From NCBI RefSeq assembly GCF_003851005.1, contig NZ_BEXT01000001.1, forward strand, positions 6,246,996 to 6,310,995: a stretch of 64,000 nucleotides of DNA, read 5' to 3'. Shown in pieces: positions 9,016-39,180 of this stretch (position 1 is the first letter of the stretch; each line of letters begins with the position of its first letter). Position numbers and translations under genes: made by a program. Under the pieces are notes generated by a model that was not told the origin of the DNA, made no database searches, and saw only the letters and a list, made by a program, of their open reading frames with translations. The stretch is from Desulfonema ishimotonii (GTDB lineage: Bacteria; Desulfobacterota; Desulfobacteria; Desulfobacterales; Desulfococcaceae).

Positions 9016-9432
9016 ATGCGCCTCCTCTTTTTGATCCTGATCGCCTTGCCTGCAAAGGCTCAGGATACAGCCACAGAAACCGCCGGACCTGCCCCCCGCT
9101 ATCACCTTGAGATGGTTGCGGTGAAAAAGGTCTCCGGGAATGAGGAAAAGATCTATTTCATGTTTGACGGTCCCCGTCCGCCCAGAACCTTTTTTACGGA
9201 GACAGGGCCGTTGCGGGTGGTCTCTGTTTTCTCAGATACCCGTCCCGGCAGGGATGTGGCCATGCTTGACGAGGCCGACGGGCGGCTGGTGCAGACGGTC
9301 CGGGTCGGGCGGCATGATGAAGACGGGCCGGACGTGTGGGTGGTCCTGGACCTGGTTCCCGGACTGGAATACGAGCTGGAGCATATCTTCATGGAAGGGA
9401 AAATTTACCTGCTGATCGTTAAAAAGCGGTAA
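9016..9432 (+). CDS. Secreted or periplasmic protein with a signal peptide; possible AMIN-like beta domain.
   Basis: MRLLFLILIALPAKAQD signal peptide. The track ORF starts at 8965. Its last codons and stop lie inside a family C repeat copy. Confidence 0.45.
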   Translation: MRLLFLILIALPAKAQDTATETAGPAPRYHLEMVAVKKVSGNEEKIYFMFDGPRPPRTFFTETGPLRVVSVFSDTRPGRDVAMLDEADGRLVQTVRVGRHDEDGPDVWVVLDLVPGLEYELEHIFMEGKIYLLIVKKR

Positions 9433-9594
9433 GGGAATTTCGTAAGACTGCCCATGCCATCTGATGGCAGGGCGGGGTTACATCCACGCCGAAACGGTGT
9501 TCCCCCCAAATTTTCCCCATGTTACAAATCAGCGGTCATATCCGACGGGGCCGTAACCCCGTCCTACCGTTTTGAAGCGGGTCGTTTATTTCTG
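9424..9594 (+). repeat. Family C palindromic element, copy 1: GGCGGGGTTACGTCCCCGCC hairpin, ~60 bp conserved core, then inverted hairpin GACGGGG(C)CGTAACCCCGTC.
   Basis: Shares more than 80% identity with copies at 15000-15165 and 19503-19648. It begins in the last codons and stop of the upstream gene (AGCGGTAAGGGAATTTC). Confidence 0.7.
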
Positions 9595-9889
9595 CTGAAC
9601 TCCCTGATTCCGCCTTTCCGGGGAGCGCCGGATCAATTCTGCTTGACACCCTGTGATCTGTTTCCTACACTTCCGCCAGATACCGTTCGGGGTGGCCGGA
9701 AAGACCGGCCTGAGATGATACCCGCCGAACCTGATCCGGGTCATGCCGGCGCAGGGAAACAGAGAAGGGCCGCATACAAAGCAGCCCCGTGGCGTATCAC
9801 TGACGCCAGGCCGTTCCCCTGTGGAAACGGCTTTTTTTGTCAGGAAATTTTATGAGTGGGCCGTCAATTAAGTTTCCTGACATAAAACC

Positions 9890-10046
9890 ATGTCATTCCG
9901 AACGGATGTGAGGCGTCTGAAATTTCTCGCTCCGCCCGAAATGACAAAGGCTCATTTTATGACGGCAGGCAGTATATGTCATTCCGAACGGATGTGAGGA
10001 ATCTGTGTCCATGGCGCACAGATTTTTCGCTCCGCCCGAAATGACA
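9890..10046. repeat. Family A hairpin repeats, two tandem copies (GTCATTCCGAACGGATGTGAGG ... CTCGCTCCGCCCGAAATGAC).
   Basis: Two imperfect-palindrome units in the thiM 5' region. The second carries a nested AATCTGTG..CACAGATT hairpin. Related copies occur at 14238-14309 and 23826-23858. Confidence 0.65.
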
Positions 10047-10116
10047 CTCATATAAAAGAACTTAATTGACGGACCACTGAGTTCCCGTACTTTAATTTTA
10101 ATGAGGAAAATCGGAT

Positions 10117-10926
10117 ATGAACAGATTTGCAGACCGTGCCGCCGAAACCCTTGCCGCGGTGCGGGAGAACCGGCCACTGATTCACAATATCACCAATTTT
10201 GTGGTCATGAACTACACCGCAAACGCCCTGCTGGCAATGGGCGCATCACCGGTCATGGCCCACGGCATCAACGAAGTGGAGGAAATGGCGGCCCTGGCCG
10301 GTGCGCTGGTTCTCAACATCGGCACGCTGACCGAGGAATGGGTGGCCGCCATGATCCGGGCGGGGAAAAAGGCGTCGGAGCTGGGAAAACCGGTGGTTCT
10401 CGACCCGGTGGGGGCCGGTGCCACAAGGCTCAGAACCGCCTCGGCAAAACAGATTATCGAGCAGGTTCGCGTTCGCACCGTCCGGGGAAACGCCTCCGAA
10501 ATTCTGGCGCTTGAGACCCGTGACGCCACGACCCGCGGCGTGGATTCGGTTCATTCGGTTGAAGATGTGGCCGGGACCGGCAGTGCAATGGCCGATGCGC
10601 TGAAGACCACCCTGGCCATCACCGGGCCGACCGATTTTATTACCGATGGCAATCGCGTACTCCGGGTGGCCAACGGCCATCCCCTCATGGCGCGGATTAC
10701 CGGGACCGGCTGCACGGCCACAGCGATTGTCGGCGCGTTTTCAGCCATTGACGATGATCCGGTCTGTGCGGCGGCCTCCGCCCTGGCGTTTTTCGGGCTG
10801 GCCGGAGAGGTGGCCGCACAACACGCATCCGCGCCCGGCTCCTGCATGATTCAGCTACTGGACGCTCTTTATACGGTCACACCGGAAGACCTGAAGGCCG
10901 GGGCCAGAATCCGGGAAGCGCGGTAA
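10117..10926 (+). CDS. thiM: Hydroxyethylthiazole kinase ThiM.
   Basis: 269 aa with IHNITNFVVMNYTANALLAMGASPVMAHG and the downstream conserved ThiM core. Confidence 0.85.
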   Translation: MNRFADRAAETLAAVRENRPLIHNITNFVVMNYTANALLAMGASPVMAHGINEVEEMAALAGALVLNIGTLTEEWVAAMIRAGKKASELGKPVVLDPVGAGATRLRTASAKQIIEQVRVRTVRGNASEILALETRDATTRGVDSVHSVEDVAGTGSAMADALKTTLAITGPTDFITDGNRVLRVANGHPLMARITGTGCTATAIVGAFSAIDDDPVCAAASALAFFGLAGEVAAQHASAPGSCMIQLLDALYTVTPEDLKAGARIREAR

Positions 10927-11013
10927 ACACTGTGATTTCCCCATGCATACCTTTGCCCGATCCCGTTGAGGACGGGATCCGTCATCGGGAAAATTTAAAA
11001 TTGCGGAGGAGCG

Positions 11014-11607
11014 ATGGGGTCTGATTTTTATTCCGAACATGCGGCGCGTCTGGCCGCCCAATATGAGGGACTTGCCCCGGAGAAGATTCACGCGGGGTGG
11101 CGGCGTTTTATTCCGCCTCCCAAAGCCGTTATTCTGGATGTGGGGGCCGGGTCGGGCCGGGATGCGGTCTGGCTGGCCGGAATGGGACATGAGGTCTTTG
11201 CCGCAGAACCGGCGGACGGCCTGCGGGCCGAGGGAATGCGGCGTCATCCCCAAAGCCCCGTTCGCTGGATCAGCGACGAACTGCCGGAGCTGGCCCGGGT
11301 TCGCAGGATAAAGGCCGGATTTGACCTGATCCTGCTCAGCGCGGTGTGGATGCACCTTCCGCAGCCTGCCCGGTGTCCCGCCCTTGAAACCCTGGCCGGA
11401 CTGCTGAATCCCGGCGGGCATGTGGTCATCATCCTGCGCTGCGGCGCATCCCCGGACGCACGGGAGATGTATCCGGTTTCCGCCCCCGAACTGGGGCGAA
11501 TGGCCGTCTGCGTGGGCCTGGAAACCGTGCTGGCAGCCCGACCGGAACCGGACGGCTTCAACCGGGCCGGGGTTTCCTGGGAAACGGTGGTGCTGGGGAA
11601 CAGGTAG
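11014..11607 (+). CDS. Class I SAM-dependent methyltransferase.
   Basis: Motif I VLDVGAGSGRDAVWLA; 197 aa. Confidence 0.6.
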   Translation: MGSDFYSEHAARLAAQYEGLAPEKIHAGWRRFIPPPKAVILDVGAGSGRDAVWLAGMGHEVFAAEPADGLRAEGMRRHPQSPVRWISDELPELARVRRIKAGFDLILLSAVWMHLPQPARCPALETLAGLLNPGGHVVIILRCGASPDAREMYPVSAPELGRMAVCVGLETVLAARPEPDGFNRAGVSWETVVLGNR

Positions 11608-11625
11608 CCGTCCCGCATTTTCAGC

Positions 11626-11733
11626 CATCGTTCCGACGCTCTGCGTCGGAATGCCCGACCGGACGCTCCGCGTCCCGTCACACGACGCGGGAGCGTCGGG
11701 GGCACCCGTTCCAACGCAGAGCGTTGGAACGAT
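11626..11733. repeat. Family B palindromic repeat (CGTTCCAACGCTCTGCGTTGGAACG-type units).
   Basis: Hairpin units ATCGTTCCGACGCTCTGCGTCGGAATG ... GTTCCAACGCAGAGCGTTGGAACGAT. The same family occurs in 3-4 units at 33108-33357. Confidence 0.65.
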
Positions 11734-11963
11734 AGATTACGGATTTGCAGATACAAATTGGACGAAGCGTAATCCGGCATGGCCTTAAAATCAAATGGGT
11801 ATTCAGCAGATCCATCGCTTCCGGCTTTGTGATGCCGGGATCAGTCTGAGTTGACATGATTTGCCTCCTGCTGTAGATTCGGTTTCCTATTGAAACGGGA
11901 TATTGGGGCAGCTCATTTCCTACCAACAATACCCCTGAGCGAAAAGCAGGAAGGAATCGTATA

Positions 11964-12401
11964 TTGAAAACAGGAAAGATCATCACATCCGATGCGGAGA
12001 TCCGGCAGATCCTTGAGAGCTGTAAAACCATTGCCGTGCTGGGGGCCAGCCCCAAGCCTGCACGGGACTCCCACAAAGTGGCCCGCTATCTTCAGGCCGA
12101 AGGGTATAAAATCATCCCGGTCAGACCGGCCCAGAAGGAGATACTGGGCGAACCGGCCTGTCCGTCCCTCAGCGACATCGCCGGGCCGGTTGATATGGTG
12201 GATGCGTTCAGGAACGCCCGGCAGATCATGGCCCATGTGCCGGAGGTGATCCGGCTCAGTCCCGCAGTTTTCTGGATGCAGGTGGGGATAGAAAATCAGG
12301 AGGCTGCCGAACAACTGATCGCCGCAGGCATTGATGTGGTGATGAACCGGTGTACCAAGACAGAGCATATGAGACTGGTCAATGAGAAAATCATCTTATA
12401 G
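11964..12401 (+). CDS. CoA-binding domain protein (YccU/YneT family).
   Basis: KTIAVLGASPKPARDSHKVARYLQAEGYKIIPV is a Rossmann-like CoA-binding signature; 145 aa. Confidence 0.7.
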   Translation: MKTGKIITSDAEIRQILESCKTIAVLGASPKPARDSHKVARYLQAEGYKIIPVRPAQKEILGEPACPSLSDIAGPVDMVDAFRNARQIMAHVPEVIRLSPAVFWMQVGIENQEAAEQLIAAGIDVVMNRCTKTEHMRLVNEKIIL

Positions 12402-14237: not shown

Positions 14238-14309
14238 CATGTCATTCCGAACGAATGTGAGGACTCTGTGGTCATACAACACAGATTTCTCGCTTCGCTC
14301 GAAATGACA
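14238..14309. repeat. Family A hairpin repeat, single copy.
   Basis: ATGTCATTCCGAACGAATGTGAGG ... CGCTTCGCTCGAAATGACAC with an inner ACTCTGTG..CACAGATT palindrome. Confidence 0.6.
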
Positions 14310-14374
14310 CTTCGGTATTTTTATTTTTTCAAAGTCCCTTATATTCCCGCAGGAAAAATTAAGGAAATTCTCAC

Positions 14375-15007
14375 ATGGAAAACCAACTCTGGACCTATCT
14401 GATTGCCATTACCCTGCTGACCATGACGCCGGGGGTGGACACGTTGCTGATTATTCGGAACACCACCCGCGGCGGCCTGCGGGACGGGGCTGTGAGCAGC
14501 GTCGGCATCTGCACCGGCCTGTTTGTCCACGCCACGGTTTCAGCCGTCGGCATTTCCGTGATCCTGCTTCAGTCCGCACTCGCCTTCAGCGCCCTGAAAC
14601 TGGCCGGGGCCGGCTATCTGGTCTGGCTGGGACTGATCAGCCTGCGCAGCGCCCTGGGAAATAGCGATGCCCCTGACCTGACCCGTCAGAATTTTGTCCT
14701 CCGCCGCTTCAGCGCACGGCGTTCGCTGACCGAGGGCTTTCTGTCCAATGTGCTGAATCCGAAAACCATCGTCTTTTACATGGCCTTTCTGCCGCAGTTT
14801 ATCGACCCGTCGCGGTCGGCCCTGCAACAGTCCCTGTTTCTGGCCGGACTCCATTTTGCCATTGCAATGATCTGGCAGTGCCTGCTGGCGTCTGTCGTCG
14901 ATCAGGCCAGCGGCTGGCTCAGCCACCGCAGGGTCCGCCGGACAATGGACGGCCTGACCGGCTCCGTTATGATGGCACTCGGCATCCGGCTGGCGATGGA
15001 GCGGTAA
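14375..15007 (+). CDS. LysE/RhtB-family amino-acid exporter.
   Basis: ITLLTMTPGVDTLLII N-terminal signature; 210 aa with 6 TM helices. Confidence 0.8.
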   Translation: MENQLWTYLIAITLLTMTPGVDTLLIIRNTTRGGLRDGAVSSVGICTGLFVHATVSAVGISVILLQSALAFSALKLAGAGYLVWLGLISLRSALGNSDAPDLTRQNFVLRRFSARRSLTEGFLSNVLNPKTIVFYMAFLPQFIDPSRSALQQSLFLAGLHFAIAMIWQCLLASVVDQASGWLSHRRVRRTMDGLTGSVMMALGIRLAMER

Positions 15008-15165
15008 GGAATTTCTGCAAAATAAAACTACCCCCGCCATCTGACGGCAGGGCGGGGTTACGTCCCCGCCGAACTGCTGAATTTTCCTGACGCTGCAAAT
15101 CGGCGGTCATATCCGACGGGGACGTAACCCCGTCCTGCCGTTTTGAAACGGGTAATTGATTTGTG
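15000..15165 (+). repeat. Family C palindromic element, copy 2.
   Basis: Starts within the last codons and stop of the LysE gene (AGCGGTAAGGAATTTC), then CCATCTGACGGCAGGGCGGGGTTACGTCCCCGCC ... GACGGGGACGTAACCCCGTCCTGCCGTTTTGAAACGGG. Confidence 0.7.
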
Positions 15166-15209
15166 ATGAACTTTCTAAAAGATATCCCCCTCAACAGAAA
15201 GCCACGTCC

Positions 15210-15938
15210 ATGACAATAGCTTACGGCGGTCGGACCTGCTTCGGCCATGCCATCGGCATTATTATGCTGGATACCGTATTCCCCAGGATTCCCGGCGATA
15301 TCGGTAACGCGGCGACGTTTCCTTTTCCCGTACTCTACCGGATTGTCCGGGGCGCATCGCCCCAGCGGGTGGTGAAAGCTGCTGACCCGGCACTGCTTGG
15401 CCCGTTTATCGAAGCGGCCCGCGAACTGGAAAAAGAAGGCGTCAGCGCCATTGCCACCAGTTGCGGATTTCTGGCGGTTTTTCACCGGGAGCTGACCGAT
15501 GCCGTCCGCATCCCCGTCTTCACCTCAAGCCTTTTGCAGGCCCGGACCGCCTTTTCGGTCATCGGCAAAGACCGGAAGGTCGGCGTTCTCACCGCCCGGC
15601 GTCAGTCGCTGACAGAACAGCATCTGGCCGGGGTGGGCATTGAGGCGTTGCCCCTGGTTATTGAGGGCATGGAGACGGCTGACGAATTTACCGCTGTTTT
15701 CATTGAGGGGAAGACGGAACTGGATGTTGAAAAATGTGAAGGGGAAATGATCGCCGCAGCCGGTCGGCTGATCCGTGCCGCGCCTGAAACCGGGGCGATT
15801 GTCCTGGAATGCACCAACATGCCCCCCTTTGCCAGGGCTGTTCAGAGGGCGGTGAGACTGCCGGTGTTTGACGCCGTTACGATGGTGAAATATGCCCACG
15901 CCGTCGTATGTCAGCAGGCGTATCCGGCCCCGCTGTAA
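15210..15938 (+). CDS. Asp/Glu/hydantoin racemase superfamily protein (arylmalonate decarboxylase / maleate isomerase-like).
   Basis: IGIIMLDTVFPRIPGDIGNAATF and a second half with a conserved Cys (LECTNMPPF). The internal ATG at 15210 was chosen because the upstream part of the track ORF overlaps the family C repeat. Confidence 0.65.
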   Translation: MTIAYGGRTCFGHAIGIIMLDTVFPRIPGDIGNAATFPFPVLYRIVRGASPQRVVKAADPALLGPFIEAARELEKEGVSAIATSCGFLAVFHRELTDAVRIPVFTSSLLQARTAFSVIGKDRKVGVLTARRQSLTEQHLAGVGIEALPLVIEGMETADEFTAVFIEGKTELDVEKCEGEMIAAAGRLIRAAPETGAIVLECTNMPPFARAVQRAVRLPVFDAVTMVKYAHAVVCQQAYPAPL

Positions 15939-18403: not shown

Positions 18404-19474
18404 GTGCGGCAAATAAACAGACAGGATCGGTTCAGGGGCGTCATTCTCGGCACTGCCATCGGTGACGCCGTCGGATTGCCCGCCGAAGGGATCAGTCGGC
18501 GGCGTTCAGAGCGGCTTTTCAAAGGCCGATGGCATCACCGCCTGATCTTTGGCCGGGGAATGGTCAGTGATGATACAGAACACACGGTTTTCGTTGCCCA
18601 GAGTCTGCTGGCCCATCCGGCGTCGCCGGAACAGTTTGCCGGGCGGCTTTCCCGGTGCCTGAGATGGTGGCTGCTGTCTCTCCCTGCCGGTGTGGGGTGG
18701 GCCACGCTGCGGGCTCTCATCCGCCTGTGCGTCGGCATTTCACCCGGAAAAAGCGGGGTCTGGTCTGCCGGGAACGGCCCGGCCATGCGGGCGGCCCCCG
18801 TGGGGGCCTTTTTTGCGGAATCTCCCGACCTCCGGGATGCCTGTCTCCGGGCCGCCACCCGGATCACCCACACCGACCCCAGGGCCCTGACCGGGGCAAA
18901 GGCCGTGGCTGATATGGTCGCCCGGAGTATCCGGGAGGGCGGAACACAGCGGCCGGCGTGGCCTGAGTTTTTATCGCTTCTCAGATCCGCCGGTGAGGGA
19001 GACGGGGAGTGGCTGGCGCTGACAGAGCGCCTCACCGCCGCATGGGAAAAGGGGCTTGATGTGCGGGAATTTGCAGCGGAACTGGGGCTGGACCGAGGGG
19101 TCACGGGGTATGTCTACCATACCGTGCCCGTGGCCCTGTACGCCTGGTACCGGCATTTCGGAAATTTTTCAGAGACCCTGTGCGCGGTATGGGACTGCGG
19201 GGGGGATACGGATACAACCGGGGCCATTGCCGGGGCGCTGGCCGGGGCCGTGACCGGCGAATCGGGGATGCCGCACGACTGGGTTTCGGGGATACGGGAC
19301 TGGCCCCGAAGTCTGACGGTGCTGCGAAAAATCGCAGATGCCCTGGCGGCCAAAGGGGGGCAGCCGGATATCCGGCCCGTATCATACCCGGTGGTCGGTG
19401 TGCTGCCCCGCAACCTCCTTTTCCTGGTAATCGTCCTGCTGCACGGCATGAGACGGCTGCTGCCGCCGTATTAG
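18404..19474 (+). CDS. ADP-ribosylglycohydrolase family protein (DraG/ARH-like).
   Basis: RFRGVILGTAIGDAVGLPAEG signature and later DTDTTGAIAGALAGA. A GTG start at 18404 follows the AGGGAGG RBS at 18391-18397. The C-terminal tail is hydrophobic. Confidence 0.75.
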   Translation: MRQINRQDRFRGVILGTAIGDAVGLPAEGISRRRSERLFKGRWHHRLIFGRGMVSDDTEHTVFVAQSLLAHPASPEQFAGRLSRCLRWWLLSLPAGVGWATLRALIRLCVGISPGKSGVWSAGNGPAMRAAPVGAFFAESPDLRDACLRAATRITHTDPRALTGAKAVADMVARSIREGGTQRPAWPEFLSLLRSAGEGDGEWLALTERLTAAWEKGLDVREFAAELGLDRGVTGYVYHTVPVALYAWYRHFGNFSETLCAVWDCGGDTDTTGAIAGALAGAVTGESGMPHDWVSGIRDWPRSLTVLRKIADALAAKGGQPDIRPVSYPVVGVLPRNLLFLVIVLLHGMRRLLPPY

Positions 19475-19502
19475 TTCAGGAATTTTCGTGAAATAAAAAT
19501 AC

Positions 19503-19648
19503 CCATGGGACCGGTAGGGCGGGGTTACGTCCCCGCCGAAACGGTGCCCATCGCCGCTTGAATTTTCCAGACGTTACAAATCAGCGGTCATATCTGACGG
19601 GGACGTAACCCCGTCCTGCCGTCCTGAAAGGGGTAGTTTATTTATTCC
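19503..19648 (+). repeat. Family C palindromic element, copy 3.
   Basis: Begins about 30 nt after the ADP-ribosylglycohydrolase stop. GGGCGGGGTTACGTCCCCGCCGAAACGGTG...CAAATCAGCGGTCATATCTGACGGGGACGTAACCCCGTCCTGCCGT. Confidence 0.7.
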
Positions 19649-19656
19649 GAACGCCC

Positions 19657-21297
19657 TTACCTGTTTTGCATTACCCGGTTCAGCGTCTCCTCAAGTTCAC
19701 GGATATTGTAGGGTTTTTCAATGACCCCGCAAAAGCCGTGCTTCCTGAATCCGGTCATTTCCGGATCATTGGAATAGCCGCTGGAAACGATTCCCCGAAC
19801 GTCCGGATCGAGCTTCAGCAGCTCCCGGATGGCCTGACGGGCCCCCATGCCTGTTGTGACGTTCAGGTCAAGAATGACCACGTCAAAGGGGGTGCCGGAC
19901 GCCAGGGCCGTCTGATACCGGTCAATCGCCTCAGCCCCGTCCCCGGAGAGCCCGACCGTATAGCCGAGGGCCGTCAGCATCTGTCCGGCCACCGCCCTGA
20001 CGATCTTTTCGTCATCCATGATCAGCACCCGGCCCCTGGGCGTCACACGCCGGGGGCTGTGTTTTGCAGAAAGGCGTTTATCCGCTTCCGCAGCATCTGC
20101 TGCGGGCAGCCAGAGGGTGACCGTTGTCCGGTCCCCCTGTTTTGACACCACGTCAATATCGCCCCGGTGGTGCCGGACAATGGCGTAAATTTCCGCGAAA
20201 TCGAGACCCATGCCCCGCCCCCGCCCGTCTTTCAGGGAGACGTAGGGATCAAAGATCTGCCCCAGGTACTCTTCCGGGATACCGGCCCCCCGGTCTCTGA
20301 CCGTGATTCTGACATATCTGCCCGGGGGAACTTCCGTCTGCATTTCCGGGGAAATCACCATGTTCTCTGCGGAAATCTCAATGGTGTCGCCCGCATGCAT
20401 GGCGGCAGCGCTGTTTCGGATGAGACCGGTGAGGGCCTGCATCATCTGTTCCTCATCAAAGATTACCGGCCAGAGATCCACCGGTGCGGAAACCGCACAG
20501 CGAACGCCCGGTGTCTCCGGCGCGACACCGGCGGCCCTGCGAAGGGTGTCGGCCACAGAGCGGAGACGCATATCCGGTGGGACGGTATTGGCGATGCGGT
20601 TCAGCCGACCGATAAAGGCCCGGATCTTTTCACACCCGGCCCTGGCGGCGGACAGGCGCTTAAAGGCGTTGTTCCGGGCGGGAATGTCCCCGAAGGCCAG
20701 GTCGATGTTGCCGATGACGGGGGTGAACATGTTGTTCAGATCGTCTACGATACCGGCGGCCAGCGTTTCCAGAAACTGAAATTTCCGGGCGATCAGTTGC
20801 TTTTCCGCCCGCTGTTTCCGCCCGCTGATATCCCGTGCGAAAAAGAGGATTTCAGACGGCGCGCCGCCCGGGGGAAGGGCAATGGCGTTCACTTCGACCG
20901 GAATCAGGGCCAGCTCCCGGTTGATGAAATGAAATTCATGCAGCCGGATTTCCCCGGAACCGCTTCCGGGGGCATCAAAGAGTCTGGCCCGGATGGTTTC
21001 CAGCTCATCCGGGGGCAGGATATCGGCGATGTTCATCCCCGTCAGTTCCGCCTCGAGGTATCCGGTAATGCCGAGCCCCCCCTGATTGGCAAATGTGATC
21101 TGGCCGTCCATGTCAAATCTGAGGATAATTTCATGGGCCGCGTCAATCATGGCCCGATACGAACCCTCAGCGGCATCGGCCCGCCTTCCAGCCGGTTCGG
21201 TCGGTTTTTCCCGGTTTTCCTCTCCGTTTTGCATATGGAAATTCTCTCTGGTCTGGGGGTTGCGGTTTCCGGACTCCCGTCTTTGCAGGGCGGGCAA
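19657..21297 (-). CDS. Hybrid sensor histidine kinase (PAS - HisKA - HATPase_c - REC). The H-box phospho-acceptor His is replaced by Asp (..AAGIVDDLNNM..).
   Basis: PAS segment, an intact G-box (GRGMGLDF) and a C-terminal receiver (VLIMDDEK...VVILDLNV). The codon at 20743-20745 (GAC on the coding strand) sits at the conserved AHDFNN histidine position. Confidence 0.75.
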   Translation of the reverse strand: MPALQRRESGNRNPQTRENFHMQNGEENREKPTEPAGRRADAAEGSYRAMIDAAHEIILRFDMDGQITFANQGGLGITGYLEAELTGMNIADILPPDELETIRARLFDAPGSGSGEIRLHEFHFINRELALIPVEVNAIALPPGGAPSEILFFARDISGRKQRAEKQLIARKFQFLETLAAGIVDDLNNMFTPVIGNIDLAFGDIPARNNAFKRLSAARAGCEKIRAFIGRLNRIANTVPPDMRLRSVADTLRRAAGVAPETPGVRCAVSAPVDLWPVIFDEEQMMQALTGLIRNSAAAMHAGDTIEISAENMVISPEMQTEVPPGRYVRITVRDRGAGIPEEYLGQIFDPYVSLKDGRGRGMGLDFAEIYAIVRHHRGDIDVVSKQGDRTTVTLWLPAADAAEADKRLSAKHSPRRVTPRGRVLIMDDEKIVRAVAGQMLTALGYTVGLSGDGAEAIDRYQTALASGTPFDVVILDLNVTTGMGARQAIRELLKLDPDVRGIVSSGYSNDPEMTGFRKHGFCGVIEKPYNIRELEETLNRVMQNR

Positions 21298-23784: not shown

Positions 23785-23825
23785 GCGTCTATTCAAAAGT
23801 TCTCCGACTTTTGAGGAATCTTAAG

Positions 23826-23858
23826 ATTTCTCGATTCGCTCGAAATGACACTGTTGTA
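23826..23858. repeat. Family A repeat, right-half fragment only.
   Basis: TCTCGATTCGCTCGAAATGACACTG matches the 3' arm of the family A units. Confidence 0.4.
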
Positions 23859-24169
23859 TTTTTATTAAAAAATTATTGATGGAGTACTTAAGGGATGAGG
23901 AGGCATCGTTCGCAAACTTTCCGGGGAACAAAATCGGGTGTTCCTGCGCGAACAGGGCAGGCACAGGGGCCTGCCCCTACGGGAGAATTCAGGATAATAA
24001 GGTTCTTATTTCTGAACGTCAGCGCCTGCCCGGATCGCTGTGCCGCCGTGGCGGCGGGTTTCGCGGTGTTGTAAAAAATCCCCCCGGCCTTTTGAAAAGG
24101 GGGGAGAATTTTTCCTGACTTAATGCCCCTGGGAGGCAGCGCACAACACCGAATGCGTTCAGGCCGGAA

Positions 24170-27353: not shown

Positions 27354-27929
27354 GCTAGTCTATGCACACAAGTTATCTCGTTCCCAGGCTCTGCCTCAAT
27401 GCCATTAAGTTAAGCGGATTTTTTTGGGAAAATCCGCTTTTCTCAGAACCGGGGGCCGTCGCGGCAAATCCCGCCGCCTCGCCGGGGAATGAATTCCCCG
27501 GCTGAATCCCTGAAACCCGCTTAAAAGCTGTTTTTTTAATTTTTTTCGGAGTGCAAAAGTTAAGTCCCGAAAGGGACGATCTTTTGCAAAATTTGCGAAA
27601 AACCGGCCTCCGGCCTTAATTTTCGCACTCCGTTTCTGAGTCGCCGGTATTTTTAAAGCAGCTTCTAAGGCGGGTTGGCCGGGGATGCCAACAGGCTTCA
27701 GCCTGTTTTGCGGTTTCAGCCCCGGAATTCATTCCGGGGTGTGGCGGCAGATTCCGCTGTTCCCTAACTTAATGGCATTGAGGCTCTGCCTGGGAATGCG
27801 GTCCCGGAGGCTCTGCCTCCTTCCACGCGAGGCGAAGCCTCGTAACGAGATTCCGGGTATCTTACCCCGCTTTCCCGACATTCCCGAAAGCTGGTCCGTC
27901 TGTATCTGACTTATGTGCATAGACTAGTG
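27354..27929. mobile_element. ~575-bp non-coding nested palindromic element (MITE-like or structured RNA). Outer TIRs CTAGTCTATGCACACAAGT / CTTATGTGCATAGACTAG, inner 30-bp inverted repeats and several internal perfect palindromes.
   Basis: Outer inverted repeats at 27354-27372 and 27911-27929. Inner IR TTCCCAGGCTCTGCCTCAATGCCATTAAGTTA (27381-27412) against TAACTTAATGGCATTGAGGCTCTGCCTGGGAA (27765-27796). Paired palindromes CCGGGGAATGAATTCCCCGG and CCCCGGAATTCATTCCGGGG, and CGGAGTGCAAAAG against TTTTCGCACTCCG. There is no credible ORF. Confidence 0.55.
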
Positions 27930-28623: not shown

Positions 28624-28640
28624 TTCGGAATTTTTCCGAA
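28624..28640. promoter_or_regulatory. Perfect palindrome TTCGGAA-TTT-TTCCGAA, candidate operator about 35 nt upstream of the rubredoxin-array gene start.
   Basis: 7-3-7 inverted repeat in an AT-rich promoter region between 28450 and 28674. Confidence 0.35.
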
Positions 28641-28673
28641 TTTTAACCCCACAAAATGTTCAGGAGAATATGT

Positions 28674-29873
28674 ATGCGGAAATGGAAATGTACGGTGTGT
28701 GGCTACATCCACACCGGAAACGAACCGCCGGAAAAATGCCCGGTCTGCGGCGCGGATAAAAGCCTCTTTGAGCCGGTTGGCGAAAGCGCTGAGGCAGCGG
28801 CGCAGGCCGGGACTGAAACCGCTGCAAAGTGGCGATGCACGGTGTGCGGCTACATCCACACCGGAAACGAACCGCCGGAAAAATGCCCGGTCTGCGGCGC
28901 GGATAAAAGCCTCTTTGAGCCGGTTGGCGAAAGCGCTGAGGCAGCGGCGCAGGCCGGGACTGAAACCGCTGCAAAGTGGCGATGCACAGTGTGCGGCTAC
29001 ATCCACACCGGAAACGAACCGCCGGAAAAATGCCCGGTCTGCGGCGCGGATAAAAGCCTCTTTGAGCCGGTTGGCGAAAGCGCTGAGGCAGCGGCGCAGG
29101 CCGGGACTGAAACCGCTGCAAAGTGGCGCTGCACAGTGTGCGGCTACATCCACACCGGCGACGAGCCGCCGGACAAATGCCCGGTCTGCGGCGCGGATAA
29201 AAGCCTCTTTGAGCCGATGGCTGAGACTGCCGCTGAAACAGAATCGCCTGCCGGAACCGAATCCGTCGCAAAGTGGCGCTGCACGGTGTGCGGCTACATC
29301 CACACCGGCGACGAGCCGCCGAAAAAATGCCCGGTCTGCGGCGCGGACAAAAGCCTCTTCGAGGCGCTCTCCGAAACCGCCGCGCCTGAAAAGTCCGCAG
29401 ACGCGGAAACCGCACCCCGTTCCTCCCGTGGCCGGATATATGACATGCTCATTGAGCAGATGCTGAAGCATCACGCCCATCCCGTCTCGGTCCATATTCC
29501 CAACGGGGTGATCCCCATGAACGTTCTGTTTATTCTCATGGCCCTGCTGTTTCACATGGGCAGCCTTGAACTGGCCGCCTTCTGCAACACGGTCTTTGTT
29601 GTGCTGACCATGCCGTTTATCGTGTTCTCCGGGTATATCGAGTGGCAGAAGCGGTATGGCGGGCATCTGACGAACATTTTCGTTATCAAGATTCTCTGTG
29701 CCACGGTGGTGGCGGCGTCGGCTGTCGGGATCATGATCTGGTGGATCATTGATCCGAACGTGGCGGACGCCACCTCGCCCAACCGGTGGCTTTTTTTTCT
29801 GGTCAACCTGATGATGCTGGGGGCCGCAGCCGTTGCCGGGTTTATCGGCGGAAGATTTGTTTTCAAGGATTAA
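28674..29873 (+). CDS. Protein with five tandem rubredoxin domains (W[RK][10 protein letters not shown][ND]EPP[EDK][13 protein letters not shown]) joined by Ala/Glu/Thr-rich linkers and fused to a C-terminal ~4-TM membrane domain.
   Basis: Five CxxCG...CPxCG rubredoxin knuckle pairs. The C-terminal 150 aa are hydrophobic with conserved His ([11 protein letters not shown]). RBS AGGAG lies 6 nt before the ATG at 28674. Confidence 0.8.
28683..29417 (+). repeat. Tandem 147-bp coding repeats (5 units), one per rubredoxin domain. Units 2 and 3 differ by a single nucleotide.
   Basis: Unit boundaries are at about 28830, 28977, 29124 and 29271. Units 1-3 are near-identical; units 4-5 have diverged (GDEPPDKC and GDEPPKKC). 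Confidence 0.8.
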
Positions 29874-33089: not shown

Positions 33090-33107
33090 GATTCCCGGCA
33101 TCTTCAA

Positions 33108-33357
33108 ATTGCGCATCGTTCCAACGCTCTGCGTTGGAATGTCCGACCGGACGCTCTGCATCCCGTCACGCGACGCAGGAGCGTCGGAACGATGAATAAA
33201 TCTCAGCGCCGGTGTAGCAGCAGATCGGGTTGGCGAAGCGTAACCCGACATCGTTCCAACGCTCTGCGTTGGAATGCCTGACCGGACGCTCTGCGTCCCG
33301 TCACGCGACGCGGGAGCGTCGGAGTTACTCGTTCCAACGCAGAGCGTTGGAACGATG
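33108..33357. repeat. Family B palindromic repeats, 3-4 tandem hairpin units (GTTCCAACGCTCTGCGTTGGAAC / GACGCTCCCGCGTCGCGTGACGGGACGCAGAGCGTC).
   Basis: Same units as at 11626-11733. They occupy the intergenic space between the flotillin gene and the giant ORF. Confidence 0.7.
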
Positions 33358-33495: not shown

Positions 33496-36400
33496 ATGGC
33501 TCAAACGGAACACTCCGCTGAGAAAACCGGGGCGGACGCCACGCTGGAAGGCGGAACCTATGAGATCATACGCAACCGTCTGCTGAATCACGGCAAGGCC
33601 CTGCGGGAACGGCTGGAAAAACTGGACGGGTCGCGCAGGGAAATCTTCGGGGCCATTGAACAGACCCTGCTCGCCACCGAGCGGATCACCACCCGCCACA
33701 ACTGCGTGCCCCGTGACATGGTCTCCGTTAACGGAACCCGTTTCGTATTCGGCTATAACGTTCACATGGGCCTCAAGACCGAAATTCAGATTTCGGATGT
33801 CTTTTCGGTCTACCAATACAAAGAGCGCCAGTTCCGCCAGTTGCCCTGGGAGGTGCTTGACTCCGGGCGCTTTGAGGAAGACCTGAAAAATCTTTATAAA
33901 TATTACAAAGATACGCGGTTTATCAAATTTTCGGTGATCGGGCCGCACCTCTACATGGTTTTCCGGGTGAGCAAATCCTCCAGGGATATCAAGGCCTTCA
34001 AATGGCTGATTCAGGACAGCACCCTGACCTATATGGACAACCGGAGCGACCATGAGGTCCGGTTTCCGGGGCAGCACGATTTTGAGTGGACCCGCACCAC
34101 CCGTGACGATCACAGGCCCGGCAGTCATCCCCATGTCTCCGTCCGGGACCGGGTGTTTGTGGAAACCGTGGGCGGCGATATCACCTTCAAGGTGGAGGAC
34201 AACACCGAGATCGGCCAGGGGATTTACGCCGAACCGGTGGAAAATCCGGATCAGACTCTGGACGACGCCGAGATCGCCTATGCCGTGATGGGCCACATCA
34301 TCCTGGTCAGAATCCGGCCTTACCAGGAGGCGCGATTCCGCTATTTCATCTACAATGACAAGACCCGGACGGTCTGCCGGGCCGATGATATGGAACAGGC
34401 CTGCGTACAACTGCCCGACGATCAGGGCCTGATCTTCTCCAACGGCTACTATCTTGAGAGCGGTGAACTCCGGCGGTTTGAAAGCGGCATGCGCGACATG
34501 ATGTTTGAGAGCCGCATTGCCTCCCCCAACGGCGAGGATTTTCTCTATGTGTTTTATGATCAGGAATCGGGGAATTATGCCCTGCTCTCCTACAACCTGA
34601 TCCGCCAGCAGGTGGAAACGCCCCTGCCGTGCAACGGTTTTTCCCTCTTCGACTCCGGCGAGATGATCCTGTTCCGGGCCGACCGGGAGCCGGTCCGTCA
34701 TCATGTGATCCAGGTCTGGCAGACGCCCTACATGAGCGGAGAGCACGCCTTTGCCGAGAAGAGCGACGCCTTTCTCTACAAGGTGGGCAACCCGGATATC
34801 GTGCGCTGCATGGCCGAATGCAACACCCTGATCCGCCTGATCAACCGCGAAGACCTCTATGCCGCGCTTTACGTGGATATGGTCAAAAAGGCCAGGGATA
34901 TCGCGGATGCGTATTTCTGGATCGACAACCCGGAGGCCTTCAATCTCAGAGAAGTGCTGTCGGAGATTCGGAAGGCCGCCTCCGGGGCTGTGGACGAGTT
35001 TGAAAAGGTCGTCCGGTTGAAGAAAAGTACGGCCGATGCCGTGGCCCGCGTGACCGACCGGTCCCGCGAGATCCTTGACCGGGCCGCGCCGGAGTACATG
35101 GAGAGCATCGACGATTTCGTCAGGGGCCTGGCCGCGCTGCGGGGGGTGCGGGGAGAAATCATCTCCCTCGGCGAGCTGCGCCATGTGGATACGGAGGCCG
35201 TGGCGCGTCTGGACCGGGAGGTCTCCGAAGCGGTGGACAGAATGTCCGGCCTCTGCGTGGAATTTCTTCTGAAGCCGGAGGCCCTTGGGCCATATGAGGC
35301 CCGCGTGGCCGAGGCCGGAGAGCAGGTGGAATCGCTGAGCCGGGTCACGGACGCCAGTGCGCTTCAGGAAAAAACGGAAGCGGCATCGGAGGCGCTGGAG
35401 ATGCTCATCGAAATCGTGAGCAACCTGAAGATCGAAGATGCGACCCAGACCACGCGGATTATCGACAACATCTCGGCCATCTATTCCCGGCTCAATCAGG
35501 TTCGGGCCGCGCTGAAAAATAAGAAGAAGCGCCTGCAAAGCATCGAAGGCGTGGCCCAGTTCAACGCACAGATGAAGCTCCTCAGCCAGAGCGTGATCAA
35601 CTATATCGACATTTGTGACACGCCGGAAAAGTGCGACGAATACCTCACCAAAATCATGATTTCGGTGGAGGAGCTGGAGGGCCGGTTTGCCGACTTTGAC
35701 GAGTTCATCGGGCAGATCTCCGAAAAACGGGACGAGGTTTACGCCGCCTTTGAATCGAAAAAACTGGCCCTGGCCGAGGCCCGTAACCGGCGGGCCACCG
35801 CACTCATGGACGCGGCGGAGCGCATCCTCAGAGGCGTACAAAACCGGGTGGCGACCCTGGAGGAGGTCAGCGCCATCAACGCCTATTTCGCCTCGGACCT
35901 GATGATCGAAAAGGTCCGGGATATCGTGACACAGCTTCTGGAGATCAGCGACACGGTCAAAGCCGATGACATTCAGTCCCGCCTCAAAACCATCCGTGAG
36001 GACACGGTCCGGCAGCTGAAAGACCGCAAAGAGCTGTACGCGGAGGGTGAGAACATTATCCGGTTCGGGAACCACAGTTTTTCCGTCAACACCCAGCCCC
36101 TGGACCTGACAATGGTGCTGCGGGACGGCGTCCGGATGTTTCATCTCACCGGCACCGATTTTTTTGAGCCGGTGGCCGACGCGGCCTTCGAGGCCACCAG
36201 ACCGGTCTGGGACATGGCGGTGATTTCAGAGGACAAAACCGTATACCGGGGCGAATATCTCGCCTTTCAGATGCTCCGGGCCTTTGAAGCGGAGGACGGG
36301 GAGACGCGCACCCGCTTCGGGGCGTTTTCGGATGCGGAGTGGGAGGAACACACCCGGACCTTCATGGGCCAGCGCTATGCCGAGGGATATGTCAAAGGGG

Positions 36401-39021
36401 TCCACGACCGGGACGCCGCAAAGTTATGCAGCGCCCTGGTCGCCATGCACGGCAAAATCGGCCTGCTGCGCTTCTCCCCCCGTGCCCGCGCGCTGGCCCG
36501 GCTCTTCTGGCACATCTACTTTCAGGCGTGGTCGGATGAAACCGCCCGGAACCTGATGGCCGACAAGCTGGCGGCCTTCGGGGCCATGACCCAGATCTTT
36601 CCCGGACCGGGGCAACAGGAAAATTATGTGGCAGAGCTGGAGACGATGCTCGCCGATTTTGCGGAAAAGGTTCCGCTCTTCCCGGATGCGCCCGTGCCGG
36701 AGGCGGCCCGCTACCTCTTCTGCGAGCTGAGCGGCTTTGAGACCGATGCCGGGGATGAGTTTGTGATCAGCACGGGGGCCTGGGCGGTGGCCGAGGGGCT
36801 GCTCAGCCATCTCCGGGCGGAAGGGTGTGCCGAATCGCTGGAAAAGGCGCGGGAAAAGGTGGCCCGGATTCCGGCCTCCGAGTTTGAGCTGGTGCGGGAC
36901 TGGGTGGCCGGATACGCCGCCACCCTGCCTGCGGAAAAGGATCTGAGCGACTATGTTGACGAGGCGTCCGTGCTGATCTTCACCCGGAACGCCCGGCGCA
37001 TGAACATGCCGGAGGTCTCCGTCTCTGCGGATATTGAGGGCATGGCCGGGGATCATCCGGTGATCCGGGAGGGCCGGTATCATCTCAACTACAACCGGTT
37101 TTCGGAAAAGCTCTCCTGGTACGAGGGGAACGTGGTCCCCCGGTTCAGGGAATATACGGCCCTCAGAAAGCAACTGACCGATGAGATGCGGGAGACGCTG
37201 CGGCTGTCGGAATTCAAACCCCGCGTGCTGACCTCCTTTGTCCGAAACAGGCTCATCGACCAGGTCTACCTGCCCCTTGTGGGCGACAATCTCGCCAAGC
37301 AGATCGGCGTGGCCGGGGAGGGCAAGCGCACCGACCGCATGGGGATGCTGCTGCTCATCTCGCCGCCCGGCTACGGCAAGACCACCCTGATGGAGTATAT
37401 CTCCAACCGGCTGGGCATTATTTTTATGAAGATCAACGGCCCGGCCATCGGATATCAGGTCACCTCCCTCGACCCGGCAGAGGCCCCCAATGCCAGCGCC
37501 CGCGAGGAGGTGGAAAAAATCAGTCTCGCCCTGGAGATGGGCGACAACGTGATGATCTATCTCGACGATATCCAGCACTGCAACCCGGAACTGCTGCAAA
37601 AATTCATCTCCCTCTGCGATGCCCAGCGCAAAATCGAAGGGGTGTACAAGGGGCGGACCCGGACCTATGACCTGCGGGGCAAAAAGGTGGCCGTGGTCAT
37701 GGCCGGGAACCCCTATACCGAAAGCGGCGAAAAGTTCAGAATCCCCGATATGCTCGCCAACCGGGCCGACACTTACAATCTGGGCGACATCATCGGCGAC
37801 ACGGCAGAGGCCTTTAAGCTGAGCTATCTGGAGAACGCCCTCACCTCCAATCCGGTACTCAGTCCCCTGACCAGCCGGAGCCGGAAGGATATCCACAGCA
37901 TCATGAGGATCGCCGAATCCGGGGACCGCGAGGGGATCGAGTTTGACGGCAACTATTCGGCCGAGGAGCTGAACGAGATGGTGTCGGTGATGGAAAAGCT
38001 GATCACCGTGCGCGAGGTGATTCTCAGGGTGAACCTGGAATATATCCGCTCCGCAGCCCAGGCCGACGAATACCGCACCGAACCGCCCTTCCGGTTGCAG
38101 GGGTCGTACCGGAACATGAACCGCCTTGCCGAAAGGATCGTGCCCATCATGAACCCGGAGGAGGTGAAGACCCTGCTCCTGTCCCATTATGAAAATGAGG
38201 CGCAGACCCTGACCACCGGGGCCGAGGCCAACCTGCTCAAATTTAAAAAACTGACCGGGTGGATGGACGCTGCCGAAACGGCGCGGTGGGCGGAGATCTG
38301 CCGGATGTTTAAAAAGAATCAGTTGCTCCGGGGCATGGATGATCGTGATCCGGTCACGCAGGTGGTGGGGCAGTTGTCGGCCTTTTATGACGGGCTGGAG
38401 GGCATCCGGGGGGTGCTGGCATCCGCCATGAAACAGACCGACCGGGGCATGACGCGGATCGCCTTTGCCGAGGAAACCCTGGGGCAGTTGGCGGGGCTGG
38501 TGTCGGCGGTCAGAGCGGTGGCCGCTTCATCCGCCAAAGCGGAGAAAGAGGAGACGCCCGCCGATCCGGTGCTGCCCCCGAAACTGGAGGTGGTGAACCG
38601 GATGCCCGACGGATATCTGGAACTGGTGAAGGCCCAGTTTGAAATGATGGACGCCTGGATGGAGCCAACGTTCAAGGCCACCCGGCAGCAGGCCGGGGTA
38701 CTTCAGAAACTGGGGCAGGAGATCGGAAATCTCAAGGCGGTCTATCAGGAGATCATCCATGCCCGGCAGGAGGGGGGCTGGCAGGATATCGAGAAGTTCG
38801 ACGTGGCGCTCAGGGTCAATCCCAAGGACCACAAGTCCTATTACAAGCGCGGGCTGGCGTGGTACAATAAAAACAAGGTCAGCCGGGCGCTGAGCGATTT
38901 CAAAAACGCCCTCGATCTTCAGCCCAAAAACAAAAAATACCAGCGGATCGTGGCCCATCTGGAGGCGGAGCTGACCACCGATAAGGGAGAGGGAGAGAAT
39001 TACAAATCGACGATCTGGTAG
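33496..39021 (+). CDS. Giant 1841-aa multidomain protein of unknown function. It has a beta-rich N-terminal ~470 aa, a long alpha-helical/coiled-coil middle, a MoxR/McrB/dynein-like AAA+ P-loop module (Walker A ISPPGYGKTT, Walker B VMIYLDDIQH, sensor-1 AGNPY) at about aa 1280-1450, and C-terminal helical repeats ending in TPR.
   Basis: Single uninterrupted ORF with RBS AGGAGG 9 nt upstream. Walker A is at nt ~37369-37386 and Walker B at ~37555-37580. TPR-like KSYYKRGLAWYNKNKVSRALSDFKNALDLQP lies at the C-terminus. Confidence 0.85.
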   Translation: MAQTEHSAEKTGADATLEGGTYEIIRNRLLNHGKALRERLEKLDGSRREIFGAIEQTLLATERITTRHNCVPRDMVSVNGTRFVFGYNVHMGLKTEIQISDVFSVYQYKERQFRQLPWEVLDSGRFEEDLKNLYKYYKDTRFIKFSVIGPHLYMVFRVSKSSRDIKAFKWLIQDSTLTYMDNRSDHEVRFPGQHDFEWTRTTRDDHRPGSHPHVSVRDRVFVETVGGDITFKVEDNTEIGQGIYAEPVENPDQTLDDAEIAYAVMGHIILVRIRPYQEARFRYFIYNDKTRTVCRADDMEQACVQLPDDQGLIFSNGYYLESGELRRFESGMRDMMFESRIASPNGEDFLYVFYDQESGNYALLSYNLIRQQVETPLPCNGFSLFDSGEMILFRADREPVRHHVIQVWQTPYMSGEHAFAEKSDAFLYKVGNPDIVRCMAECNTLIRLINREDLYAALYVDMVKKARDIADAYFWIDNPEAFNLREVLSEIRKAASGAVDEFEKVVRLKKSTADAVARVTDRSREILDRAAPEYMESIDDFVRGLAALRGVRGEIISLGELRHVDTEAVARLDREVSEAVDRMSGLCVEFLLKPEALGPYEARVAEAGEQVESLSRVTDASALQEKTEAASEALEMLIEIVSNLKIEDATQTTRIIDNISAIYSRLNQVRAALKNKKKRLQSIEGVAQFNAQMKLLSQSVINYIDICDTPEKCDEYLTKIMISVEELEGRFADFDEFIGQISEKRDEVYAAFESKKLALAEARNRRATALMDAAERILRGVQNRVATLEEVSAINAYFASDLMIEKVRDIVTQLLEISDTVKADDIQSRLKTIREDTVRQLKDRKELYAEGENIIRFGNHSFSVNTQPLDLTMVLRDGVRMFHLTGTDFFEPVADAAFEATRPVWDMAVISEDKTVYRGEYLAFQMLRAFEAEDGETRTRFGAFSDAEWEEHTRTFMGQRYAEGYVKGVHDRDAAKLCSALVAMHGKIGLLRFSPRARALARLFWHIYFQAWSDETARNLMADKLAAFGAMTQIFPGPGQQENYVAELETMLADFAEKVPLFPDAPVPEAARYLFCELSGFETDAGDEFVISTGAWAVAEGLLSHLRAEGCAESLEKAREKVARIPASEFELVRDWVAGYAATLPAEKDLSDYVDEASVLIFTRNARRMNMPEVSVSADIEGMAGDHPVIREGRYHLNYNRFSEKLSWYEGNVVPRFREYTALRKQLTDEMRETLRLSEFKPRVLTSFVRNRLIDQVYLPLVGDNLAKQIGVAGEGKRTDRMGMLLLISPPGYGKTTLMEYISNRLGIIFMKINGPAIGYQVTSLDPAEAPNASAREEVEKISLALEMGDNVMIYLDDIQHCNPELLQKFISLCDAQRKIEGVYKGRTRTYDLRGKKVAVVMAGNPYTESGEKFRIPDMLANRADTYNLGDIIGDTAEAFKLSYLENALTSNPVLSPLTSRSRKDIHSIMRIAESGDREGIEFDGNYSAEELNEMVSVMEKLITVREVILRVNLEYIRSAAQADEYRTEPPFRLQGSYRNMNRLAERIVPIMNPEEVKTLLLSHYENEAQTLTTGAEANLLKFKKLTGWMDAAETARWAEICRMFKKNQLLRGMDDRDPVTQVVGQLSAFYDGLEGIRGVLASAMKQTDRGMTRIAFAEETLGQLAGLVSAVRAVAASSAKAEKEETPADPVLPPKLEVVNRMPDGYLELVKAQFEMMDAWMEPTFKATRQQAGVLQKLGQEIGNLKAVYQEIIHARQEGGWQDIEKFDVALRVNPKDHKSYYKRGLAWYNKNKVSRALSDFKNALDLQPKNKKYQRIVAHLEAELTTDKGEGENYKSTIW

Positions 39022-39043
39022 GGAGGCATGAAATTGTTTTCCT

Positions 39044-39180
39044 GACGACAGGGCGGGGCCACATTCCCGCCGAAAACTGCCGCCTCCCCCGAAAGCGCCG
39101 CCGTGGAAGGCGGCACTACCGTCATGTCGGAAACCGACGGTAGCGCGGGGTTCCATCCCCGCGAAAACGGCTATTTCCCC
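39044..39180 (+). repeat. Family C palindromic element, divergent copy 4, directly after the giant ORF stop.
   Basis: GACAGGGCGGGGCCACATTCCCGCCGAAAAC ... GACGGTAGCGCGGGGTTCCATCCCCGCGAAAACGG. It keeps the paired-hairpin architecture at the same ~25-nt spacing from the stop as the other copies. Confidence 0.55.

Follow-up and report, generated by a model that had tools for sequence, protein, structure and literature searches.

Why do three copies of a palindromic repeat lie flush with the stop codons of protein-coding genes in Desulfonema ishimotonii? The question is raised by a 64,000-nt stretch of contig NZ_BEXT01000001.1 (positions 6,246,996 to 6,310,995), hereafter the window, in which this repeat, designated Family C, recurs. 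A sequence-only reading of the window had taken the strict gene-end placement to suggest a terminator, a regulatory module of the 3' untranslated region (3' UTR) or a site-specific mobile element, and had set the repeat apart from random scatter of repetitive extragenic palindromes (REPs). Comparison with other genomes indicates that Family C very probably belongs to a REP family itself: it is best described as a REPIN, a non-autonomous inverted doublet of GTAG-tagged REP hairpins with the tags pointing outward, within a REP population served by the REP-associated tyrosine transposase (RAYT) of Desulfonema ishimotonii. A position right after stop codons is already known for such repeats and marks no new regulatory device; the specifics of this variant are a lineage-specific spacer of 42-62 nt and outer arms of ~40 nt.

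Linkage of the REP hairpin to RAYT genes

Three elements in the window contain the hairpin GGCGGGGTTACGTCCCCGCC together with an inverted partner, GACGGGGACGTAACCCCGTC (Table 1). Matches to the 20-mer GGCGGGGTTACGTCCCCGCC or its near reverse complement with up to three mismatches number seven in the window, against none expected by chance, and for these three copies the earlier description of paired, inverted 20-bp hairpins is borne out; all nine REP hairpins in the window are intergenic. An exact 20-mer scan across one genome per species, a set from which Desulfonema ishimotonii itself is absent, recovered the hairpin on 58 stretches, ~45 of them in a metagenome-assembled genome (MAG) labelled Magnetococcales, ~14 in MAGs labelled Desulfatirhabdium butyrativorans, and others in the Deltaproteobacteria MAG CSMAG_2959. 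In CSMAG_2959 (locus L036), exact REP copies in plus and minus orientation bracket an open reading frame (ORF) that scores 84.2 bits on the NCBIfam model NF047646 REP_Tyr_transpos (cutoff 80). The same arrangement, with a plus-oriented REP upstream and minus-oriented REPs downstream of a RAYT gene, is found in five contig sets: L036 itself; Desulfobacteraceae bacterium IS3 (L060), where a homolog of the L036 RAYT lies inside inverted REPs; three JGI contigs (L064-66); an ENA contig (L067); and GCA_017881795.1 (L068), where the bracketing REP is a one-base loop variant. The assignment to RAYTs is based on the match to the REP_Tyr_transpos equivalog, with the IS200 model far under its cutoff (21 bits vs 55), and on a match to PF01797.

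No RAYT gene was found in the window itself (tblastn returned only noise at E 0.55). The genome of Desulfonema ishimotonii nevertheless encodes an intact RAYT ortholog of 146 aa (P0125), which is 69% identical to the L036 protein, scores 117.7 bits on the same model (cutoff 80), and retains the HUH histidines and the catalytic tyrosine. Since the REP brackets RAYT genes in relatives and an intact ortholog is present in Desulfonema ishimotonii, Family C very probably is a REPIN. The contrast with REP scatter drawn previously therefore does not hold, as the element combines a GTAG-tagged 7-bp hairpin, RAYT linkage and a RAYT ortholog in the source genome; the view of Family C as a mobile-element-like repeat at gene ends stands, with elements that abut stop codons and a REP family linked to RAYT genes. 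As proposed for other REPINs, the RAYT would bind the tagged hairpin in single-stranded DNA and copy the doublet as a unit.

The REP arms are widespread, and the composite unit appears to be confined to Desulfonema ishimotonii. When the composite element profile was run against the loci fetched from other genomes, the REP arms alone matched, at no more than 49 bits; a metagenome scan with the spacer core gave as its sole match a chance match inside a histidine-kinase coding region. The full unit with spacer and outer arms was found nowhere else in the compared data, and is therefore considered a lineage-specific REPIN variant. The nearest relatives of the LysE protein encoded next to one copy (75-78% amino acid identity) have no REP at the orthologous site. 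The three window copies share both the spacer core and the flanks, and may all derive from a single lineage-specific master in which spacer core and outer arms were already present.

REP-RAYT systems are described as mostly vertically inherited. The occurrence of the same REP in MAGs labelled as two different phyla (the phylum is that of the MAG label) is thus unexpected for a REP-RAYT system; the REP is near-invariant although the RAYTs share only 50-70% identity and the hosts carry different phylum labels. A profile search for RAYT relatives gave no match named Magnetococcales among the best 120. A near-invariant REP across divergent RAYTs bears on how tightly REPs and RAYTs co-evolve, and on possible horizontal movement. 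Desulfobacterota go unmentioned in the published REP surveys consulted, including the 2013 GTAG survey; a conspicuous repeat of Desulfonema ishimotonii, present also in several related uncultured Desulfobacterales, now finds its probable explanation as a REP/REPIN-RAYT system.

Several loci of the other genomes have features of their own. The MAG labelled Magnetococcales (CAYFNE01 contigs, loci L001-L058) carries an identical REP of 28-29 nt, GGTAGGGCGGGGTTACGTCCCCGCC, on its ~45 stretches, mostly as tight doublets with a 17-nt loop within a larger conserved unit; at L033 (4961-5337), a larger REP-containing unit forms a partly N-masked tandem array with four direct REPs at 101-nt spacing. In L068 (3001-3582) a REP inserted within the RAYT ORF accounts for an additional segment of the protein P0128, and in L036 (1801-2186) the 3' end of the RAYT gene is truncated by a REP. 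Database RAYTs that start with MVGRGYVPAE (P0121, P0123) include the translated upstream REP, and are thus mis-called at their starts. Two annotation warnings follow: RAYT N-termini such as MVGRGYVPAE in databases can be translated REP, and metagenome assemblies break at REP-flanked genes.

Architecture and folding of the elements

The defining features of GTAG-tagged REPs and REPINs, the latter being REP doublets that form a hairpin (PMC3116915), have been described previously (PMC3733652; PMC3116915), and the E. coli RAYT needs both the GTAG tag and the hairpin, to which it binds (PMC3479197). Each arm of Family C has the corresponding tag, 7-bp stem and 6-nt loop. At the left end, an outer arm AGGRAATTTC..AAATAAAAnTACCC leads to the tag GGYAG and the first hairpin; the spacer in the middle, 42-62 nt long, is conserved and asymmetric in its right part; at the right end, the inverted hairpin GACGGGG..CCCCGTC is followed by the inverted tag and an inverted outer arm ending in ..GAACnnnCT. 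Arms, spacer and outer arms together fold into one long hairpin.

Folded alone as single-stranded DNA, each hairpin reaches -7.3 to -9.5 kcal/mol and leaves its tag (GGTAG or GGCAG) unpaired; over 134 occurrences of the REP, the tag reads GGTAG in 94 and GGCAG in 14. The doublet arms of 24-28 nt are 92-93% complementary (93% for the 28-nt arms of copy 2, 15044-15071 and 15114-15141). As whole units, copies 2 and 3 are predicted to form one long hairpin of -81.5 kcal/mol (z -6.7) and -84 kcal/mol (z -6.4), respectively; copy 1, with mutations in its stem, reaches -64.7 kcal/mol (z -2.4) and is decaying. Between the left and right hairpins of the window, a G:C to A:T change in the right arms is compensatory; further compensatory changes, at the outer pairs, occur as T:A in L067 and as C:G at 39144 and in L067. 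Such paired changes indicate that the REP stem is under selection. Doublets in other genomes have the '+-' geometry with outward tags in 23 of 23 cases, the same as in the window copies.

A hidden Markov model built from the three copies recovers them at 202-208 bits, each on the plus strand (9423-9609, 14997-15180 and 19469-19662); owing to the imperfectly palindromic nature of the unit, the opposite strand of each copy is matched as well, at 40-62 bits. Pairwise identity is ~81% with 14-18 indel columns per pair, and conservation is highest in the REP arms (89-96% identical), lower in the spacer (77-85%) and lowest in the outer arms (66-77%). Three occurrences of the core CAAATCAGCGGTCATATCCGACGG were found in the window, with 0-1 mismatch, against none expected. 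Readings of this core (ATGACCGCTGATTTGTAA, minus strand) as a mini-ORF or as a binding site for integration host factor (IHF) were dropped, neither being conserved in copy 2.

The sequence-only reading had counted four full copies with a shared core, all in one orientation. Copies 1 to 3 answer to this description and lie on the plus strand, although such agreement among three copies has a one-in-four probability by chance; the fourth, at 39044-39180, has no core and is not a full copy, consisting instead of two direct, diverged REPs. The limits given earlier pointed to the right sites but cut off the outer arms, most severely at copy 3. Likewise, the fragment placed at 42581-42625 is real, but is part of a longer half element that lies on the minus strand and best matches the right arm.

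Table 1. Family C elements, related REP hairpins and stop-codon junctions in the window
Feature	Position	Strand	Remarks
Copy 1, composite REP doublet (probable REPIN), partly decayed	9432..9605	+	profile 207.5 bits
Copy 1, left REP hairpin	9471-9490		2 stem mismatches
Copy 1, right inverted REP hairpin	9544-9563		
Copy 1, spacer core equivalent	9509-9543		
Copy 1, left end	9432		base common to AGG and TAA stop 9430-9432 (AMIN-like gene 8965-9432)
Copy 2, best-preserved probable REPIN	15007..15176	+	
Copy 2, left REP hairpin	15051-15070		
Copy 2, right inverted REP hairpin	15115-15134		
Conserved asymmetric spacer core (copy 2)	15080..15114	+	AATTTTCC..CAAATCRGCGGTCATATCY; sets element orientation
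Copy 2, left end	15007		base common to element and TAA stop 15005-15007 (LysE, 14375-15007)
Copy 3, probable REPIN	19474..19657	+	fills entire gap between convergent stops
Copy 3, left REP hairpin	19518-19537		
Copy 3, right inverted REP hairpin	19596-19615		
Copy 3, spacer core equivalent	19561-19595		
Copy 3, left end	19474		base in TAG 19472-19474 (ADP-ribosylglycohydrolase, + strand), via GTTC...GAAC pairing
Copy 3, right end	19657		base in TAA 19657-19659 (PAS histidine kinase, minus strand)
GGTAAGG junction heptamer with stop codon	9428..9434	+	
GGTAAGG junction heptamer with stop codon	15003-15009	+	
GGTAAGG junction heptamer with stop codon	19655-19661	-	
Two diverged REP singlets, direct orientation	39041..39184	+	hairpins 39052-39071 and 39144-39163 (stem of the latter preserved via G:C to C:G compensatory change); profile 17-20 bits; start ~20 nt past TAG stop (39019-39021) of 1841-aa DUF3686/AAA gene
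Half element, right arm and one REP hairpin	42554..42630	-	hairpin 42593-42612, GACGGGGTTACGCCCCCGTC; profile 26.6 bits, model positions 111-186; 38 nt downstream of UbiD stop (minus-strand gene 42668-44461)

Stop codons and protein C-termini

The elements had been described as starting 0-30 nt from stop codons, and the stops listed in Table 1 indeed abut all three copies; the sequence AGCGGTAAGG(G)AATTTC, shared by copies 1 and 2, overlaps the stop codons as reported. The further proposal that the insertion had supplied the C-terminus of the upstream protein is contradicted by homologs of the LysE and AMIN-like proteins. LysE homologs (n=16) are 210-211 aa long, and 14 of the 16 end in R, as does the window protein; the two nearest relatives, on REP-free contigs, end in ..GAT CGG TAG and ..ACG CGA TAA. 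The AMIN-like homologs (..KKR, ..KKV and ..RKI) stop at a common column of the alignment. The terminal codons and the stop position are therefore ancestral and did not come from the insertion; no more than the final base of the stop is common to it and the palindrome. A 36-nt spacer downstream of LysE in locus L062 (AGGAAT...TTTGTGATGGAC) looks similar to the outer arms of copy 2, but aligns with them ambiguously and was therefore counted neither as a remnant nor as an empty site.

Placement in tight intergenic regions

The native DNA left outside the copies is very short: there is none beside copy 3, 33 nt between copy 2 and the racemase ATG at 15210, and 37 nt between copy 1 and the -35 box of the promoter at 9643-9671 that drives a thiamine pyrophosphate (TPP) riboswitch at 9678-9774. 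In spacers this short, an insertion can leave the downstream ribosome-binding site or promoter intact only by abutting the stop codon. Copies would survive only where they are harmless, which in tight intergenic regions would mean flush with stop codons; survival confined to such positions would give the appearance of a fixed offset, in which 38-43 nt separate the first hairpin from the stop. The same pattern has been reported for other GTAG REPs, whose termini often furnish the stop codon and most of which are no more than 20 bp away from a 3' end; between convergent genes, REPs are found within 20 bp of both 3' ends, and between co-directional genes near the upstream 3' end (PMC3733652).

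For the REP shared with Family C, a census of loci fetched from other genomes, with ORF-based gene calls that make it crude and indicative only, placed 26 of 43 sites between tandem, 10 between convergent and 7 between divergent genes, at a median distance of 82 nt to 3' ends vs 124 nt to 5' ends. Singlet REPs were oriented with transcription in 7 cases and against it in 8. In these loci, the positional bias expected by the sequence-only reading appears as a mild 3' preference, and its orientation bias does not appear.

Evaluation of alternative explanations

Several points weigh against the REPIN interpretation. Only three full copies were seen in the window. The repeated unit runs ~40 nt past the GTAG tags, which the canonical definition of a REPIN does not require, and Family C could have been mobilised by another route; nor does the REPIN interpretation account for the conserved asymmetric core. 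The cognate pairing of REP and RAYT inside Desulfonema ishimotonii itself is predicted from orthology only. Finally, the heptamer GGTAAGG, which holds the stop codon, is present at three element ends, a pattern more regular than selection alone predicts. This last point leads to an alternative that shares the REPIN identity but attributes the placement to insertion chemistry and not to selection: the RAYT would direct site-specific integration of the element into a sequence of the GGTA(A/G) type, in which a stop codon is often present. Of the four GGTAAGG occurrences in the window (both strands, 128 kb), three are exactly at element ends, and at four of the six ends the overlap with a stop codon is exactly 1 nt. 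The tag region of the REP itself, CGGTAGGG, is similar to the junction CGGTAAGG, and the CGG-TAx of LysE is native, so that this portion of the heptamer was already in place as a possible target. Relatives in the IS200/IS605 group insert 3' of a specific target of 4-5 nt, and the E. coli RAYT cleaves at CT, the dinucleotide with which the right ends of all three copies close. These observations are offset by the absence of the heptamer from the left end of copy 3 (TTAGTTCAGG), by right ends of copies 1 and 2 that lie away from stops, by the number of copies (n=3), and by the merely mild 3' bias of the same REP in other genomes, divergent sites included; moreover, the AGG of the heptamer also opens the terminal inverted repeat AGG...CCT, so that the motif is partly the element's own. 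Placement by insertion chemistry is accordingly considered quite unlikely. Its more specific form, in which the RAYT inserts the composite REPIN within GGTAAGG, between GGTA and AGG, at a sequence similar to the tag region CGGTAGG that often embeds a TAA or TAG stop, is judged just as doubtful. If true, elements of this REPIN lineage would target the final base of a stop codon, and the first target-site rule for REPIN transposition would be documented, with a strong hairpin put at the exact start of the 3' UTR.

A host-selected module of the 3' UTR (a terminator, an mRNA stabiliser or a translation modulator), whose distribution would be driven by function and whose REP ancestry would be incidental, is likewise improbable, even though a very stable RNA hairpin is predicted directly past the stop, copies 1 and 2 have a TTTT just past the long stem, compensatory changes preserve the hairpin, and REPs are reported to influence mRNA turnover (PMC3479197; PMC3733652). 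The T run is lost in copy 3, copy 1 is in decay, and singlets in relatives show no preferred orientation; the upstream genes (AMIN-like, LysE, ADP-ribosylglycohydrolase) are without functional relation, and the compensatory changes do not single out a role in RNA, because RAYT recognition needs the same stem. A different mobile origin, very unlikely in our assessment, would derive Family C from a DDE-type insertion sequence, as a miniature inverted-repeat transposable element (MITE) whose terminal inverted repeats are long, whose target duplication is a TNA, and which merely contains REP-like sequence inside. The whole unit of 170-185 nt is indeed an imperfect palindrome from AGG to CCT, and each end is flanked by T-N-A (TAA/TGA, TAA/TAA and TCA/TTA); yet the flanking triplets are identical in one of the three copies only, no partner insertion sequence with such ends occurs within the window, conservation is best in the REP arms and not at the termini, and the REP arms are tied to RAYT genes in five independent contig sets. 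The imperfect palindromes of 100-180 nt, in one orientation and directly after the stops of co-oriented genes, also recall the attC sites with which the gene cassettes of a chromosomal integron end. This possibility was rejected with near certainty on the gene content between the copies, which are 4.3-5.5 kb apart and separated by multi-gene stretches on two strands with a promoter, the TPP riboswitch and thiM, and genes for EamA, a lytic transglycosylase and a histidine kinase; in addition, the REP is found scattered across ~45 contigs in another genome, and its neighbours are RAYT genes, not intI.

Possible role in transcripts

Where Family C is transcribed as part of a 3' UTR, the hairpin of about -80 kcal/mol would probably act as a barrier to 3' exonucleases or as a weak attenuator of read-through, as a by-product and not as the element's reason to exist; judging from other REPs, the element may plausibly influence the stability of mRNA 3' ends. 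The proposed function as a terminator module found no counterpart in a consensus terminator scan, which called no intrinsic terminator on the plus strand at the REP hairpins and found only weak 5-bp stems at 9567-9580 and 19542-19556. No Rfam family matched the elements at gathering thresholds; at relaxed thresholds, only sub-threshold matches to generic hairpins (miRNA precursor) appeared.

Other repeats and genes in the window

Family C is accompanied by other repeats. Downstream of copy 1, the promoter-like site TTGACA-17-TACACT and the TPP riboswitch that it drives are followed by a terminator-like platform of a hairpin and T7 at ~9812-9840. Before the start of thiM (10117), two copies of a different repeat, ATGTCATTCCGAACG..GAAATGACA (9891-9946 and 9977-10046), are nested within a 20-nt inverted repeat (9855-9874 / 10059-10078); lying between the TPP riboswitch and thiM, they are inserted between the riboswitch and the gene that it controls. 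More copies of this second, MITE-like intergenic family, ATGTCATTCCGAACG..CGAAATGACA, occur at 14239-14311 and 23824-23866 (also 9885-10062), and a related stretch is found in Desulfatirhabdium MAG loci L018 and L031. A third family is built on the perfect palindrome CATCGTTCCAACGCTCTGCGTTGGAA (11626-11733, 33114-33139 and 33249-33357, in inverted pairs) and occurs also in Desulfatirhabdium MAG loci L020, L035, L042 and L049. Long intergenic inverted repeats are located at 27473-27748 (52-nt arms, 75% complementarity) and, just upstream of the Family C half element, at 42155-42359 (36-nt arms, 86%).

Long ORFs with internal tandem repeats at 28640-29380 (147-nt period, 5 copies) and 59141-59495 (48-nt period, 6 copies) probably encode repeat proteins. 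The 1841-aa protein encoded at 33496-39021, upstream of the diverged REP singlets, combines DUF3686 ('ATPase involved in DNA repair', E 3e-187), DUF7902, an AAA_5 ATPase domain and TPR repeats. A 133-aa ORF at 9454-9855, which crosses copy 1 and the TPP riboswitch, is almost certainly spurious, a warning for annotation that repeats like Family C create false gene calls.

Comparison with known systems

The closest counterparts of Family C are the GI-GIII REPINs of Pseudomonas fluorescens SBW25 and the REPs and bacterial interspersed mosaic elements (BIMEs) of E. coli with their transposase TnpA-REP. Shared features include hairpins of 20 nt that leave their 5' GTAG-type tag unpaired; pairs in inverted orientation, tags outward, that fold into one hairpin; an intergenic location of the hairpins in the window, and many copies of the REP in other genomes; in relatives, a RAYT gene bracketed by inverted REPs; and a preference for 3' ends with overlap of the stop codon. 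In contrast to these systems, the host of Family C belongs to the Desulfobacterota, the spacer is a conserved asymmetric core of 42-62 nt, and the unit extends ~40 nt past each tag; furthermore, a near-identical REP accompanies RAYTs that are 50-70% identical to one another, and reaches a Magnetococcales-labelled MAG. E. coli BIMEs are REP pairs with defined internal motifs, some of which bind IHF. Family C resembles them in its inverted REPs around a conserved internal motif, located at the ends of transcription units, but its core contains, by inspection, no convincing IHF site, and its outer arms are additional. Recruitment of IHF is mentioned in PMC3479197.

With insertion sequences of the IS200/IS605 group, the Family C system shares the HUH/Y1 transposase fold, a subterminal hairpin with a guide tetranucleotide, and probably the lack of a target duplication; unlike in this group, the transposase matches the RAYT equivalog, and its gene is not carried within the repeats. 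Correia/NEMIS and ERIC/IRU elements are co-transcribed with their neighbours and can alter mRNA stability; they are thought to be mobilised by DDE transposases, with TA duplications. Family C is similar to these MITEs as an intergenic imperfect palindrome in the range of 100-180 nt, a type of element often found in 3' UTRs; it differs from them in that its conserved parts are REPs of the RAYT-associated type.

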